A DNA stretch of 64,000 nucleotides from an uncultured Actinomycetes bacterium (GTDB lineage: Bacteria; Actinomycetota; UBA4738; JBBDTT01). The DNA is taken from positions 307,317 to 371,316 of the forward strand of contig CAVUMN010000003.1 of the NCBI GenBank assembly GCA_963742735.1, written 5' to 3'. Both the position numbers and the translations under genes were made by a program. The notes beneath the pieces are model-generated. The model saw nothing but the letters and a program-made list of their open reading frames with translations, searched no databases and was not told the origin of the DNA. Below, piece by piece: positions 8,413 to 50,570 of the stretch; the stretch's first letter is position 1, and every line of letters begins with the position of its first letter.

Positions 8413-8778
8413 ATGCTCCGGGCCGAGCTGTGGGAGGACCCCCCAGGACGTTGGAACGGCCGCCTGTCGAGCGACCCTCCTAAGATCGTCACCGCCGGAT
8501 CGCGGGCCGAGTGCCTGGACCGGCTGCTGGACTCGGCCGGGGGCGATCCCGATGCCGCCGTGGTGGTCGAGGAGCGGCCCAGGCTGGTGGGCGTGGCGGA
8601 GGCGGCCGCCATCCTCGGCTGGGACAAGCGCCGGGTGATCACGTACGTGGATCGGGGCCGCTTCCCCGAGCCGCTCGCCCGCCTCGCCGGGGGGCGGGTG
8701 TGGCGCCGCGAGGACGTTCAGGCCTGGGCCGACGCCTGGAAGACCCGGCGGACGAAACGAAAGGGGCCCGGTCCCTAG
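8413..8778 (+). CDS. HTH DNA-binding protein (excisionase/MerR-like C-terminal HTH; HicB-like N-terminal region)
   Basis: C-terminal AEAAAILGWDKRRVITYVDRGRFPEPLARLAGGRVWRREDV resembles excisionase-family HTH; stop codon lies in loop of downstream hairpin. Confidence 0.6.
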   Translation: MLRAELWEDPPGRWNGRLSSDPPKIVTAGSRAECLDRLLDSAGGDPDAAVVVEERPRLVGVAEAAAILGWDKRRVITYVDRGRFPEPLARLAGGRVWRREDVQAWADAWKTRRTKRKGPGP

Positions 8779-8788
8779 GACCGGGCCC
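8764..8788. terminator. perfect palindrome GGGCCCGGTCCctagGGACCGGGCCC, bidirectional terminator between convergent genes
   Basis: 11-bp perfect stem seen directly; followed by tctcgtttg; sits between the convergent genes ending at 8778 and 8811. Confidence 0.6.
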
Positions 8789-8810
8789 TCTCGTTTGGGC
8801 GGGTGCCTCG

Positions 8811-15821: not shown

Positions 15822-16922
15822 CTAGACGTCCTCCGGCTTCTCCGGGACCGTGATCTCTCCGTCGATGATCTGCTGCTTGAACTCGTCGAGGCGGGCGACG
15901 ATGTCGTCGGTCAGTTGGTCGGGGTTGCTCCTCGCGTAGTCGATGCCTCCCTCGGCCATCCCGAACGACCTCGAGCCGGGCTCGAACTCGCCCGCCGCCG
16001 TCTCCACGATGATGTCGTGGACCGCCGTGTCCACCCGCTTGATCATCGAGGTGAGGATGTGCGGCTGCTGCTCGGCGCTCGCGGTGAGGTACTGATCCTT
16101 GTCGACCCCGATCGCCAGCGCGTCCTCGCCCTGGTTGACGACCGACTGGAACAGGCCGGCCCCGGAGTCGCCGGCCGCGTGATACACGACGTCGGCGCCG
16201 TCGTCGTACATCTTGTCGGCCAGTGCCTTGCCCTTCGTCGGGTCGTTGAACGCGGTCGTGCTGTCGCCGATGTACTCCGTGAGCACGTCGATGTTGATGT
16301 TGATCTCCTGGACGCCGGCCTTGAACCCGGCCTCGAACTTCTCGATCAGGCCGGTGCCGCGCTGGCCGCCGAGGAACCCGACCACGCGCGACTGTGTCTT
16401 CAGCGCCGCCGCCACGCCCACGAGGAAGGAACCTTCGTGCTCCTTGAACGCGAGGTCCACGACGTTGCCGGACTCGGCGACCTCCGGCAGGCCGCAGAAC
16501 TGTCCGCAGGTGGCGAAGCCGTCGATCACCGCGAACTTCGTGTCCGGGTAGTCGCCGGCGATCTCCGCGACGCCGGGGGAGAACGCGAACCCGATGGCGA
16601 GCACCAGGTCGAAGCCCTGATCCGCCAGGTTCACGACGTTGGCGTCGCGATTGGATCCGGTCGAGTTCGGCTCCAGGGTCTCCAGGGTCGCCTCAGAGAT
16701 CAGCCCTTCCTCGATGGTCGCCTGCGCTCCGTCCATGGCCGCGTCGTTGAACGACTTGTCACCCAGGCCGCCGATGTCGAACGCGATCCCCACGGTGAGA
16801 TCGCTGGACGCCGTCGGTTCGCCGGGGCCGCCATCCGGCTGCGTCGGATCGCCGCCTCCGCACGCCGCGGTGACCAGGGCGACCAGCGCGACGATGGCCA
16901 AGAACCTGAGCTGTCGAAGCAT
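15822..16922 (-). CDS. BMP-family ABC transporter substrate-binding lipoprotein (nucleoside-binding, PnrA-like)
   Basis: Lipoprotein signal MLRQLRFLAIVALVALVTAAC; BMP family periplasmic domain. Confidence 0.85.
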   Translation of the reverse strand: MLRQLRFLAIVALVALVTAACGGGDPTQPDGGPGEPTASSDLTVGIAFDIGGLGDKSFNDAAMDGAQATIEEGLISEATLETLEPNSTGSNRDANVVNLADQGFDLVLAIGFAFSPGVAEIAGDYPDTKFAVIDGFATCGQFCGLPEVAESGNVVDLAFKEHEGSFLVGVAAALKTQSRVVGFLGGQRGTGLIEKFEAGFKAGVQEININIDVLTEYIGDSTTAFNDPTKGKALADKMYDDGADVVYHAAGDSGAGLFQSVVNQGEDALAIGVDKDQYLTASAEQQPHILTSMIKRVDTAVHDIIVETAAGEFEPGSRSFGMAEGGIDYARSNPDQLTDDIVARLDEFKQQIIDGEITVPEKPEDV

Positions 16923-16953
16923 GGGTGCTTCCCCCTCTCCGCGGCCGACCGTT

Positions 16954-16972
16954 CGTGGACGGGCCGTCCACG
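16954..16972. promoter_or_regulatory. perfect palindrome CGTGGACGGgCCGTCCACG upstream of BMP/upp operon (candidate operator)
   Basis: 9-bp perfect inverted arms about 30 nt upstream of substrate-binding protein start codon (minus strand). Confidence 0.35.
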
Positions 16973-17052
16973 GGATTCTCGATCCGCGGCCGATGGTCCG
17001 TCAAAGCCGGGGGGTTGCAAACCGCCCCGGGGTGCCCCACAATCGCTCGACC

Positions 17053-17109
17053 ATGAGGCGGCAGCTGTTTACCTACCGGTGGTATTTCGCGGGGCACAGC
17101 CCGGCGTAG
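17053..17109 (+). CDS. putative aromatic-rich leader peptide MRRQLFTYRWYFAGHSPA upstream of DAHP synthase
   Basis: 18 codons containing F,Y,W,Y,F; followed by intrinsic terminator and then aroG-type gene. Confidence 0.45.
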   Translation: MRRQLFTYRWYFAGHSPA

Positions 17110-17134
17110 TCCTTCGGTAGCCGCCAAACACAAG

Positions 17135-17163
17135 GACCCCGGGCAGCGGCCCCGGGGTTTTTC
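17135..17163 (+). terminator. intrinsic terminator/attenuator hairpin ACCCCGGGcagcggCCCCGGGG + TTTTT
   Basis: 8-bp GC stem, 6-nt loop, 5 T run; located 40 nt upstream of DAHP synthase start with no upstream plus-strand gene except the leader ORF. Confidence 0.5.
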
Positions 17164-17205
17164 TCACTCCGGCGCCGTCACCCGCAGAATGGAGAGGTGG
17201 TGTCG

Positions 17206-18279
17206 ATGGTGGTCGTGATGAAGACCTCGGCGACCCAGGCCGAGATCGATCAGGTCGTCGAACGCGTACGCGACGCCGGCGGCGAGGCCTTCATCTCGCC
17301 GGGCGAGCATCGAACGATCATCGGGCTCGTCGGGGACACCACTCGCTTCATGGAGCTGCCCCTCTCCCAGCTCCCGGGAGTCGAGAACGTCATCCGAGTC
17401 GGGCGCCCGTACAAGCTGGTGGCCCGCGAGCTGCACCCCGAACCCAGCGTGGTCAAGGTCGGCTCGCATCCGATCGACCGGCGAACGATCACGATCATCG
17501 CCGGCCCGTGCGCGGTCGAGAGCGAGCAGCAGGCGGTGGAGGCGGCCCACATGGCCAAACGGGCCGGCGCGCACCTGCTGCGCGGCGGGGCCTACAAGCC
17601 GCGGACCTCTCCCTACTCGTTCCAGGGGCTCGCGAAGCAGGGCCTGGAGATCCTCGCCGCCTGCCGCGAGGAGACCGGCCTGCCCGTGGTCACCGAGGTC
17701 CTGGAGCCCCGAGACGTGGACCTGGTGTCCAGCCTGGCGGACGCGCTGCAGATCGGCGCCCGGAACATGCAGAACTTCTCGCTGCTCAAGGAGGTGGGCA
17801 AGGCCCACGTCCCCGTGATCCTCAAGCGGGGGTTGTCCGCCACGATCGAGGAGTGGCTCATGGCCGCGGAGTACGTGGCGCGCGAGGGCAACATGGACAT
17901 CGTCCTGTGCGAGCGGGGCATCCGGACCTTCGAGACGGCCACGCGGAACACCCTCGACCTGGCCGGCATGGCCGTGGCCCGCGAGGCGACGCACCTGCCG
18001 GTGATCGTCGACCCCTCGCATGCCACGGGGGTACGTGAGCTGGTGGGGCCGATGTCCCGGGCCGCCATCGCGGCCGGCGCCGACGGCATCATGGTGGAGA
18101 TCCACCCCCATCCCGAGGCGGCGCTGTCCGACGGGCCCCAGGCCCTCACGGGGGACGACCTCGACCGATTGGTGGACGAGCTCGCCGCCCTCGGCGCGAG
18201 CCTGGGCAGGCCGGTGCCCGGCTATCAGCGCGACGCGGGCTCGACGCCGTCGATGGGCTGGGGCAGCCCGAAGCGGTAG
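17206..18279 (+). CDS. aroF: 3-deoxy-7-phosphoheptulonate (DAHP) synthase, type I-beta with N-terminal regulatory domain
   Basis: KPRTSPYSFQGL...IGARNMQNF...VDPSHATG motifs of DAHPS/KDO8PS family; RBS GGAGAGGTGG; alt GTG start 17197. Confidence 0.9.
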   Translation: MVVVMKTSATQAEIDQVVERVRDAGGEAFISPGEHRTIIGLVGDTTRFMELPLSQLPGVENVIRVGRPYKLVARELHPEPSVVKVGSHPIDRRTITIIAGPCAVESEQQAVEAAHMAKRAGAHLLRGGAYKPRTSPYSFQGLAKQGLEILAACREETGLPVVTEVLEPRDVDLVSSLADALQIGARNMQNFSLLKEVGKAHVPVILKRGLSATIEEWLMAAEYVAREGNMDIVLCERGIRTFETATRNTLDLAGMAVAREATHLPVIVDPSHATGVRELVGPMSRAAIAAGADGIMVEIHPHPEAALSDGPQALTGDDLDRLVDELAALGASLGRPVPGYQRDAGSTPSMGWGSPKR

Positions 18280-18288
18280 ACCGCCGGA

Positions 18289-19071
18289 TCAGACGGCCGG
18301 GATCAGCTCCCCGATCACGCAGCCGGCCTGCTTCCACTTCGTGATGTTCTCCCCGGGCGAACCGAAGCGGCTGCGCCGGCGATCGACCAGGGTCGCGGCG
18401 AGCTGGTCGAACTCGGGGCTGTCGGGCTGGATCACGCGCACGGCGGCCATGAACCGTGTCAGGGCGGTGTCCTTGCCCTTCTCGCGCCGGATGATCACCA
18501 CGACCTCGTTCGAGTCGGGGATCCCGGGGATGAACTGCTCCCCGGCGTTGCGATCGGGGTCGGACAGGACGTAGATCCGGCCGTTGCGGTACACGAACCA
18601 CGACGGCGCCGCGACGTCGCGTCCCTCGTGGATCACGCCGATCCACGCCACGTCCGTCGCCTTGATCGCCTTCTCGATCTCGGGCGGGAGCTTGTCGCGG
18701 GGAGCCTGCAGGACGACCTCGAACTCGACCTGGGCGATCAGGGCGCCGTTGATGGTGAACGACGCCAGGTGGATGCCGCCCATCTCGAAGTGGGCGTCCG
18801 CGATCAGGTCGTCCAGCCGGGTGACGTCCATCTCGCCCACCATCTTCCGGACCTCCGGCCCGACCGTGTGCACCGTGTCGCCGCTGGGGTCGACGAAGTC
18901 GACCTTCTCGTGCACCAGCCCCTGCGGAGCCTTGTAGTGGCGAACCAGGTGGAACGGAAGGGCGAGACCGGGCAGGGCCACGCAGTACACGCCGTTGGGC
19001 CCCGAGTCGTCCTCCGGATCGCGGACGCGGGCGTCGATCAGGGCGGCGTGGATCAGCTCGGCCGGCTGCAT
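18289..19071 (-). CDS. hypothetical protein (260 aa)
   Basis: ORF arithmetic places Met (MQPAELIHAAL) at 19071; long upstream extension in ORF track is GC-rich read-through without support. Confidence 0.5.
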   Translation of the reverse strand: MQPAELIHAALIDARVRDPEDDSGPNGVYCVALPGLALPFHLVRHYKAPQGLVHEKVDFVDPSGDTVHTVGPEVRKMVGEMDVTRLDDLIADAHFEMGGIHLASFTINGALIAQVEFEVVLQAPRDKLPPEIEKAIKATDVAWIGVIHEGRDVAAPSWFVYRNGRIYVLSDPDRNAGEQFIPGIPDSNEVVVIIRREKGKDTALTRFMAAVRVIQPDSPEFDQLAATLVDRRRSRFGSPGENITKWKQAGCVIGELIPAV

Positions 19072-19103
19072 CGCGCGAATGCTAGCCGAACCGCGTGCGG
19101 GCC

Positions 19104-48532: not shown

Positions 48533-50570
48533 CGCCCTCCTCGACGTCGACCGAGCCGGGCGGAGGCGGAAGGGAGACCTCCAGGGCCTCCCGCTTGGCC
48601 GCATCCGCGGCGGCCTCGGCGGCGGCGGCGCCCTGGGCGCGCTCCTCGAGGAGCTTGTCGACCTCGTCCTCGGAGGGGATCTCCGTCTCGCCGTCGATGA
48701 AGGCCTTGAGCTCCTCCCCCTCCATCACTTCCTTGGCCATGAGCAGCTTGGACAGGCGGGCGAGCATCTCGCTGCGCTCCTGCAGGATGGTCCGCGCGCG
48801 GCCGTGGGCCTCTTCGACCAGCCGGCTCACCTCGGCGTCGACTTTGCGCTGCATCTCCTCGGACATCTCGGGCCGGTCGTAGCCGAACAGGGGACGGCCG
48901 TCGGCGTTCCGGAACCCGTCCGAGGCGAACGACAGCGCGCCGATCACCTCGCTCATGCCGTACTCCACGATCATGGCCCGCGCGATCTGGGTCGCGCGCA
49001 TCAGGTCGTCCTGGGCGCCGGTGGAGATCTGCTTGAACGAGATCTCCTCCGCCGTCCGCCCGCCGAGTAGGATGGCCAGCCGGTCCTTCAGCTCGGGCTC
49101 GGTCAGGATGTAGCGGTCCTCGATCGGACGCTGCATGGTCATCCCGAGCGCGGCGGCCCCGCGGGGGATGATCGACACGCGGTGCAGGGGGTCGGCGGTG
49201 GGGACCGCGAGGGCCACCAGGGCGTGTCCCATCTCGTGGTGGGCGACGATCTCTCGCTGCTTCGGCGAGATGACGCGGCTCTTGCGCTCGAGCCCCCCGA
49301 CCACGCGGTCGATGGCCTCCTCGAGCTCGGCCATCGTCACCGAGTTCTTCTCGCGGCGGGCGGCGAGCAGGGCCGCCTCGTTCACCACGTTCGCCAGGTC
49401 CGCGCCGGTGAACCCGGGCGTCCGCGACGCGATGACGGAGAGGTCGACCTTGGGGTCGATCGCCACGCCGCGCGCATGGACCTCGAGGATCGCGGTGCGG
49501 CCACGGAGGTCGGGTCGGTCCACGATGACCTGCCGGTCGAACCGTCCGGGGCGCAGCAGCGCCGGGTCGAGCACGTCCCCTCGGTTCGTGGCGGCCATGA
49601 TGATGACGCCCTTGCTGGTGTCGAAGCCGTCCATCTCGACGAGCAGCTGGTTGAGGGTCTGCTCGCGCTCGTCGTGCCCGCCCAGGGATCCCCCGAGGGC
49701 GCCGGCCCGGGTCTTGCCGATCGTGTCGAGCTCGTCGAGGAATACCAGGCACGGGGCCTTCTCCTTGGCCTGCTGGAACAGCTCGCGGACGCGAGCCGCC
49801 CCCAGGCCAACGAACATCTCCACGAACTCAGAGCCGGACATGTAGAAGAACGGCACCTTGGCCTCGCCGGCCACGGCCCGGGCCAGCAGGGTCTTGCCGC
49901 AGCCGGGCGGGCCGAGCAGCAGGACCCCCTTGGGGATCCGGCCGCCGAGGCGCTGGTACTTCTTGGGGTTCTTCAGGAAGTCCACGATCTCGTGGAGCTC
50001 CTGGACCGCCTCGTCGACGCCCGCCACGTCCGAGAACGTCGTCTTCAGATCCTTGCGGTCGTAGATCTTGACCTTGTTGCGGCCCAGGTTGAGCGCGCCG
50101 GCGCCGGCACCGCCCATGGTTCGCCGGATGAAGAAGATGTAGAAGCCGATGATCAGGATGAAGGGCAGGATGTAGCCGAGCACCGTGCCCAGCAGGCCCG
50201 GCTGCACGCCCTTGACGCTGATGCCCTTCTCGGCCAGGTCGGTGGTGAGCCGCGTGGGGTCGTAGTTCGGGGGGATCGTGGCGGCGATCCGGCGCTCGCC
50301 CCCGTTCTCGAGCTCCTCGACGGCCACGATGTCGGAGGTCCCGATCTCGACGTCGCTGACCTTGCCGGCCTCCGCCAGCCTCAGGAACTCGCTGAACCCC
50401 ACCTGCCGGGTCGTGGCCCGAAGCGGGTTGAGCAGCAGGACCAGCAGCAGGAGGGCGATGACCACGTAGCCGACGGAGAAGCGCATGCGGCTCTTGCCCG
50501 GCCCGCCCTGCGAGCCCTGGCTCCCGCCCCCGAGGTCGAAGGGGAATCGGTTCTTCCGGTCATCAGGCAT
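48507..50570 (-). CDS. ftsH: ATP-dependent zinc metalloprotease FtsH
   Basis: Walker [19 protein letters not shown] zinc motif, N-terminal TM. Confidence 0.95.

Follow-up and report, generated by a model that had tools for sequence, protein, structure and literature searches.

Corynebacterium glutamicum aroR is the closest described precedent for an aromatic-codon leader in front of an actinobacterial gene for 3-deoxy-D-arabino-heptulosonate-7-phosphate synthase (DAHP synthase, DAHPS). According to the accounts given in PMC4046766 and PMC11802643, this leader (Phe-Tyr-Phe) was experimentally shown to attenuate aroF (Neshat et al. 2014, J Biotechnol 190:55), and aroR is reported to be responsive to Phe, not to Tyr. 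The leader has also been deleted in C. glutamicum to raise the flux through the shikimate pathway (PMC7356990). Leader peptides that are translated from leaderless transcripts have been documented in Streptomyces lividans (PMC8079986), Deinococcus deserti (PMC4007540) and mycobacteria (bioRxiv 10.1101/834739). Here we describe a comparable locus in a stretch of 64,000 nucleotides from an uncultured Actinomycetes bacterium (contig CAVUMN010000003.1, positions 307,317 to 371,316; hereafter the window), in which a short aromatic-rich open reading frame (ORF) and a terminator-like hairpin precede the gene of a type I-beta DAHPS. This element is, with good confidence, a ribosome-mediated (leader-peptide) transcription attenuator of the monocistronic DAHPS gene. 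Its parts, their conservation, the alternative pairings with their covariation and the in silico geometry of the switch could all be read from the window and its relatives.

The original prediction, made from the letters of the window, had placed, in front of a type I-beta DAHPS gene, an 18-codon aromatic-rich ORF and then a GC-rich hairpin that ends in a T5 run, and all three parts were recovered in our analysis. The ORF encodes MRRQLFTYRWYFAGHSPA, in which five aromatic residues (2 Phe, 2 Tyr and 1 Trp; 5/18 codons) fall within the seven codons at 17068-17088. The hairpin with its T5 run was found at 17134-17162. The downstream gene was identified as a type I-beta DAHPS by its domains (PF18152 and PF00793) and by the closest solved structures (1RZM/3PG9). 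The features that carry the argument are given below.

17053-17109, plus strand: leader ORF, start codon ATG at 17053, 18 codons and the stop codon TAG (17107-17109), peptide MRRQLFTYRWYFAGHSPA
17068-17088, plus strand: putative regulatory codon cluster TTT ACC TAC CGG TGG TAT TTC (F T Y R W Y F), aromatic class conserved
17088-17095, plus strand: region 1, CGCGGGGC, 5' strand of the anti-antiterminator, pairing with 17099-17106 in the minimum free energy (MFE) fold
17099-17114, plus strand: region 2, GCCCGG-CGUA-GUCCUU, shared strand that pairs with region 1 or region 3 and includes the stop codon
17132-17144, plus strand: region 3, AAGGAC-C-CCGGGC, 5' arm of the terminator and 3' strand of the antiterminator
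17149-17162, plus strand: region 4, GCCCCGGGG and the T5 run (17158-17162), 3' arm of the terminator and U-tract, from the MFE fold and the relatives
17206-18279, plus strand: gene of the type I-beta DAHPS with an N-terminal ferredoxin-like regulatory domain (PF18152 and PF00793)

By themselves, the statistics of the leader ORF within the window are only suggestive. At the GC content of the window (70%), a random sense codon is aromatic with a probability of 0.043, giving P = 5.8e-4 for at least five aromatic residues in 17 codons and an expectation of about 0.3 over the 544 small-ORF loci of the window, compared with the two aromatic small ORFs observed in the 64 kb. The other one, at 49930-50064 on the plus strand (five aromatic residues in eight), lies inside long ORFs on both strands and was dismissed as a chance out-of-frame ORF. 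The decisive case for the leader is its position directly 5' of the DAHPS gene together with its conservation among relatives, as judged from sequence comparison.

This conservation, which the original prediction had named as a point to be checked, was observed at two depths. Contigs encoding the nine closest proteins provided a set of 11 loci (DAHPS 75-95% identical), all of which (11/11) keep a leader of 17-18 codons at the same place, with the pattern M[KQR]R[FY]FG[YF][RE]W[YF]FAGxxPA followed by the stop codon, as exemplified by MKRFFGYRWFFAGHRPA, MQRYFGFEWYFAGHSPA, MKRFFGGWWYFAGRSPA and MQRFFGYRWYFVGESPA. Other relatives were taken from scans of sequence collections and share at most 70% identity among the matches listed. 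A census over 164 fetched actinobacterial loci with at least 300 nt upstream of the DAHPS gene, counting small ORFs with at least four aromatic residues in eight, found such an ORF 5' of the orthologous DAHPS in 131 loci on the sense strand versus none of the 164 on the reverse complement. In 110 of the 131 loci the aromatic ORF is followed by a perfect-stem hairpin and a T-rich tail.

The kind of constraint acting on the leader could be followed in the relatives of class a, one of at least three leader architectures distinguished among these loci (see below). The frame and the length (16-18 codons) are kept in 35 class-a relatives, 34 of which use TAG as the stop codon. Phe, Tyr and Trp make up 35% of the residues of the class-a peptides, with all three represented in 29 of 33, and position -9 is aromatic in every one of the 33 (20 Phe, 11 Trp and 2 Tyr). 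Aromatic positions are thus kept while Phe, Tyr and Trp interchange, which points to a constraint at the level of the amino acid or its tRNA rather than of the nucleotides. The 3' codons of the leader behave in another way: every Gly(-5) is encoded by GGG and every Pro(-2) by CCG, and codon -3 has an invariant C as its third base under differing amino acids (S, G, D, R, C or I). Such fixed codons, including a fixed wobble base under a varying amino acid, indicate a constraint at the nucleotide level, of the kind that RNA pairing would impose. When a covariance model was derived from 32 class-a sequences, excluding the window and its 95% relative, it matched the window at 17056-17169 with 76.3 bits (E = 1.7e-16), the next-best match in the window reaching 14.8 bits.

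Mutually exclusive structures, whose search by RNA folding had also been proposed, were found in the form of a 2:3 antiterminator opposed to a 3:4 terminator, the former supported by covariation. The antiterminator consists of two helices that flank the stop codon (17099-17104 with 17139-17144 and 17109-17114 with 17132-17137). Across the relatives, 43 cells of this pairing have changed on both sides, compared with 23.4 +/- 3.3 in shuffles (0/500), and controls with a slid register gave at most 13. The identical 2:3 pairing was also obtained de novo, as the consensus structure of an unguided RNAalifold run. In the competing state, the 1:2 hairpin together with the 3:4 terminator is 86.8% paired over 34 distinct sequences, mostly invariant with few compensatory changes. 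The 1:2 helix alone is 85.6% paired over these sequences, and one of its pairs covaries (G-C to U-G in four sequences); in the window only, the hairpin is extended by 17074-17079 with 17114-17119 and by 17057-17062 with 17120-17125.

One detail of the original prediction did not survive this comparison. The GCGGGGC at the 3' end of the leader had been proposed to pair with ACCCCGGG of the terminator arm as the antiterminator, and this pairing shows no covariation and only 58.8% paired cells, no better than slides by one or two columns. GCGGGGC was therefore rejected as the antiterminator strand; it is region 1, the 5' strand of the anti-antiterminator, and the true antiterminator strand is 17099-17114.

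The terminator hairpin begins 24-26 nt 3' of the leader stop codon and is composed of GGACCCCGGGC (17134-17144), the loop AGCG and GCCCCGGGG (17149-17157), followed by TTTTT at 17158-17162. Its MFE fold has 13 pairs (11 G-C and two closing G-U), including C17144 with G17149, and leaves a single C of the 3' arm bulged out. Over the relatives the helix reaches 87.7% pairing, its apical pair covaries (CG 12, UA 6 and UG 3), and the tail is T-rich (at least four T in 7 nt) in 25 of 35 relatives. Sites that combine a hairpin with a T-run are scarce in the window, with seven in 64 kb on both strands under loose rules. Another of the few canonical sites resembling an intrinsic terminator, on the minus strand at 8762-8790, combines a GC-rich hairpin of 13 bp (GAGGGCCCGGTCC...GGACCGGGCCCCT) with a T-rich tail.

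Ribosome positions were then modelled by folding the transcript up to the end of region 3 only, given that equilibrium folding is uninformative for a kinetic switch, with the footprint of the ribosome masked at each position (normal and wider footprint). In the window, the 1:2 hairpin forms and leaves region 3 unpaired when the transcript bears no ribosome or has one on codons 1-4 (1-3 if the footprint is wider). The 13-bp antiterminator becomes the MFE structure when the A-site is on Leu5/Phe6, and again when it is on Trp10/Tyr11/Phe12; at Thr7/Tyr8/Arg9, in between, neither state wins, and the wider footprint moves Arg9 to the antiterminator. With the A-site anywhere from Gly14 (or, under the wider footprint, Ala13) to the stop codon, no antiterminator forms. 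The class-a set behaves alike: for each of the three core aromatic positions of the A-site (codons -9 to -7), the antiterminator is the MFE structure in 34 of 35 sequences, and with the ribosome at the stop codon or codon -3 it is so in 0 of 35, while the 1:2 hairpin forms in 27 of 35 in the absence of a ribosome. In these folding models, the geometry of the ribosome reproduces the trpL logic. The conserved leader, the covarying exclusive structures and the dependence of folding on ribosome position together support the attenuation layout (trpL/pheL-like) that had been proposed from the window.

A promoter-like site is placed immediately upstream of the leader, with the following two elements.

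17015-17020, plus strand: -35-like hexamer TTGCAA of the putative leader promoter, conserved in relatives
17038-17043, plus strand: -10-like hexamer CACAAT, ending 9 nt before the leader ATG

When the 33 class-a relatives are lined up by their leader ATG, 30 of them contain TTGCAA, TTGCCA or TTGTCA, a spacer (16-19 bp allowed, mostly 17-18) and CAnnAT, and the CAnnAT-type hexamer ends 9-10 nt (range 6-10) before the ATG. No Shine-Dalgarno sequence was found between the -10-like hexamer and the leader ATG in the window or in class-a relatives. Considering the conserved promoter spacing together with this absence, the leader ORF is probably leaderless or near-leaderless, with a 5' untranslated region of about 0-4 nt. 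The conserved promoter-like site, whose end is 9 nt from the leader AUG, speaks against a transcription start 3' of the hairpin. The promoter region at 17008-17035 (plus strand) also contains CCGGGGGG and CCCCGGGG, tracts that resemble the core of the terminator. They are probably compositional, as similar tracts in the promoter spacer occur in few relatives only (L029 and L170).

From these parts we infer a transcription start, actual termination and a response to aromatic amino acids as follows. Transcription would begin at the conserved promoter a few nucleotides 5' of the leader AUG, and the leader would be translated in a leaderless or near-leaderless manner. As long as the tRNAs for Phe, Tyr and Trp are all charged, the ribosome would reach the UAG at 17107 and cover region 2 (17099-17114), leaving region 3 free for region 4, so that the hairpin and the U5 tract could terminate transcription at about 17158-17164. 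When any charged aromatic tRNA is scarce, the ribosome would stall at F-T-Y-R-W-Y-F (17068-17088), covering region 1, not region 2. Region 3 would then be captured by region 2 as it emerges, in the two helices that flank the stop codon, the terminator would form too late, and RNA polymerase would continue into the DAHPS gene. If the leader is not translated, region 1 would pair with region 2 and transcription would terminate. Judging by the codon content, the switch probably responds to a shortage of any of the three aromatic aminoacyl-tRNAs.

Between the T-run and the DAHPS gene, two further features were recorded.

17167-17172, plus strand: region 5, CUCCGG, conserved element 3' of the T-run
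17191-17197, plus strand: Shine-Dalgarno sequence GGAGAGG of the DAHPS gene, ending 8 nt before the ATG at 17206

Region 5, CUCCGG(G), is located 4-10 nt past the T-run in nearly all of the 33 class-a relatives and is deleted in one locus (L163). RNAalifold paired it with region 4, and the resulting 4:5 hairpin is the MFE structure in 31 of 33, with an energy that is no better than that of shuffles (not significant). Region 5 could add a second, post-termination layer of control. In the MFE fold of the window, 17170-17183 pairs with the region of the ribosome-binding site and start codon of the DAHPS gene; a conserved structure sequestering this ribosome-binding site was looked for among the relatives and was not found.

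Several observations weigh against transcription attenuation. At equilibrium, folding that includes region 4 favours the terminator at nearly every ribosome position, and antitermination must therefore be assumed to be kinetic, as in classical attenuators. In the absence of a ribosome, the antiterminator is already the MFE structure in 8 of 35 class-a sequences. The T-tract is weak (at most three T in 7 nt) in 10 of 35 relatives, where intrinsic termination may be inefficient or assisted by a factor. The covariation stems from few independent substitutions in sequences that are related to one another, the core CCCGGG motif, being self-complementary, allows several other pairings, and the whole region does not fold with unusual stability (z = -1.48).

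The weak T-tracts in 10 of 35 relatives prompted the main residual alternative, in which the same sensor of aromatic tRNAs has another output, namely Rho-dependent termination, mRNA stability or translation initiation of the DAHPS. In one paper, aroR of C. glutamicum is called a 'translational regulatory leader peptide' (PMC7356990), and both the conserved region 5 past the T-run and the predicted pairing of 17170-17183 with the ribosome-binding site and start region would suit such an output. However, the window has a canonical hairpin with T5, a perfect-stem hairpin with a T-rich tail is present at 110 loci, the relatives gave no conserved structure that sequesters the ribosome-binding site, and the alternative pairing that covaries uses the 5' arm of the terminator, as transcription attenuation requires. 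We consider another output to be unlikely, though it is the least improbable of the alternatives. Far less room is left for a chance ORF next to a constitutive or bidirectional terminator or insulator in a divergent intergenic region, with no sensing of amino acids. About 0.3 such aromatic small ORFs are expected by chance in the window, and the hairpin receives a terminator score on the minus strand as well, both of which would fit this explanation. Against it, the ORF is conserved in frame, length and aromatic content (131/164 vs 0/164 in the control), neither strand has a gene that ends at the hairpin, the upstream gene being divergent, the element is retained where the upstream gene is co-directional (L167 and L170), and covariation ties the 3' end of the ORF to the arm of the terminator. 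A chance origin is thus very improbable.

Two other explanations would assign a different role to the peptide or to the RNA, and both appear slightly less probable still. The leader could encode a functional aromatic micropeptide, such as the precursor of a ribosomally synthesised and post-translationally modified peptide or a regulatory peptide acting in trans, given that the peptide is conserved and strongly aromatic and that leader peptides with trans functions exist, for example peTrpL in Sinorhizobium (PMC7298713). Yet no modifying enzyme or exporter is linked to it, the neighbours being a Bmp-type ABC transporter binding protein and the DAHPS, and the interchange of Phe, Tyr and Trp, with other positions varying unless fixed by RNA pairing, does not fit a specific peptide structure. 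The micropeptide is accordingly a highly improbable reading as the main function, while a secondary trans role of the leader peptide beside sensing is possible. The remaining explanation is a riboregulator that binds a ligand, a tRNA or a protein (T-box, riboswitch or TRAP-like), with the ORF being incidental. T-boxes and riboswitches also use platforms of terminator and antiterminator, but Rfam at E <= 10 returned generic terminator matches only and none in 12 related loci, and the sequence 5' of the switch is an ORF with a conserved frame and codon class instead of a conserved aptamer fold, which makes a riboregulator just as remote. Ribosome-mediated attenuation of transcription is the explanation that we retain.

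The leaders found in the relatives belong to at least three classes. Class a, with leaders ending in WFFYGGxxPA and the stop codon, comprises lineages of metagenome-assembled genomes, one of which is labelled Solirubrobacterales. Class b, with leaders of the form MRQQFWFWFGYRPGSRTVARQTLR and a stop codon, occurs in Streptosporangiales, Nocardiopsis, Streptosporangium, Nonomuraea, Microbispora, Glycomyces and others, and has a strong terminator and an extra hairpin right after the aromatic codons. Class c (..WYGFP...) is shorter and is built around WYGF, with one codon per aromatic amino acid. The class-a model weakly detects the elements of classes b and c at the correct position (22-41 bits), suggesting that the three share an origin. 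These two other architectures were seen among the fetched loci L005-L160, for instance in L009 (2833-2970), L013 (2782-2919) and L006 (2826-2960), as well as in L036, L042, L061 and L073. Altogether, a leader precedes the orthologous DAHPS in Nocardiopsis, Streptosporangium, Nonomuraea, Microbispora, Actinomadura, Glycomyces and many uncultured lineages.

A scan of 16800-17400 against Rfam 15 (E <= 10) gave generic terminator hits only, with no Trp_leader, Phe_leader, Leu_leader, His_leader, Thr_leader or T-box, and none of the 12 related loci had a match at the gathering threshold. In the searchable, non-subscription literature, no description of a leader family of type I-beta DAHPS genes was found, only the aroR precedent and general surveys of attenuators; for Seliverstov et al. 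2005 (PMC1262725), the search listings showed zero occurrences of 'DAHP synthase'. It is a tentative proposal, close to evenly balanced in our judgement, that the element represents a phylum-wide, apparently uncatalogued Actinomycetota family of leaderless tri-aromatic attenuators in front of type I-beta DAHPS genes, with at least three architectures and with the charging of Phe, Tyr and Trp read in one switch.

Along its entire length, the DAHPS protein matches the type I-beta structures 1RZM/3PG9 of Thermotoga maritima (E ~1e-105), and it has thousands of homologs among uncultured Actinomycetota. As the homologs begin with MVVVMK, the start codon was assigned to 17206 and not to the GTG at 17197. 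The gene is monocistronic, the next gene downstream being convergent on the minus strand; this neighbour (18289-19100) encodes a protein of about 260 aa without a Pfam hit and is followed by a Zincin_2 (PF10103) protein. The order of leader-DAHPS, the ~260 aa protein and Zincin_2 is kept in the close relatives L161-L171, in which a Bmp/ABC transporter is usually located upstream, either divergent or co-directional. In the window, the upstream neighbour is a Bmp/PnrA-type lipoprotein gene (15822-16922, minus strand), and the intergenic region 16923-17205 separates this divergent gene from the DAHPS gene on the plus strand. A promoter-like site on the minus strand, TTGACG-18-GAGAAT at 16975-17004, faces the lipoprotein gene, so this ~280-nt intergenic region probably holds two back-to-back promoters.

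The DAHPS catalyses the committed entry step to Phe, Tyr and Trp as well as to many aromatic secondary metabolites. Its T. maritima homolog is feedback-inhibited by Tyr/Phe. The leader would add a second layer of control that reads the tRNA charging of all three products, atop the allosteric ferredoxin-like domain. The mechanism is that of a textbook attenuator, of a known kind, and does not change what is known of regulation. The new part is apparently a widely conserved actinobacterial leader family, for which neither an Rfam match nor a description was found in the searchable literature. Such a leader goes unannotated and could be covered by genome annotation and by an Rfam-type model. It would also be a target for removal in actinomycete producers where a higher shikimate-pathway flux is wanted, as was done with aroR in C. 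glutamicum (PMC7356990).

The window shares with the aroR-aroF system an aromatic-codon leader in front of an actinobacterial DAHPS gene, and the accounts of the C. glutamicum work describe a rise of aroF transcription on stalling of ribosomes at the aromatic codons. The aroF gene encodes a type I-alpha DAHPS and heads an operon. Unlike aroF, the gene of the window is monocistronic and encodes a type I-beta enzyme with a ferredoxin-like domain. While aroR has Phe-Tyr-Phe, the leader of the window contains two Phe, two Tyr and one Trp, all three aromatic amino acids are present in 29 of 33 relatives, and the element belongs to a large conserved family, aroR having been compared by its description only.

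In containing codons for several end products, a shortage of any of which would relieve termination, the leader resembles those of E. coli ilvGMEDA (Leu/Val/Ile) and thr (Thr/Ile); this likeness is drawn from codon content, and the amino acids and the pathway differ. With the ilvL, leuL and trpL2 leaders of S. lividans (PMC8079986), the poly-Cys small ORFs of mycobacteria (bioRxiv 10.1101/834739) and the leaders of D. deserti (PMC4007540), it probably shares an ORF placed at or within a few nucleotides of the 5' end of the transcript, without a Shine-Dalgarno sequence. Transcription starts have been mapped for those leaders, whereas the leaderless status in the window is deduced from promoter spacing.

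The switch itself is arranged as in E. coli trpL and pheL, with a 1:2 anti-antiterminator, a 2:3 antiterminator and a 3:4 terminator with a U-tract, and likewise the stalled ribosome would cover region 1 and the terminating ribosome region 2. Unlike these two leaders, the element of the window does not match Rfam Trp_leader RF00513 or Phe_leader RF01859. In contrast to the E. coli leaders, which have a Shine-Dalgarno sequence, it has none and starts 9 nt past the -10 hexamer. Its stop codon lies in the internal loop of the antiterminator, again unlike trpL and pheL, and its target is not a terminal branch but the entry enzyme of the common pathway.

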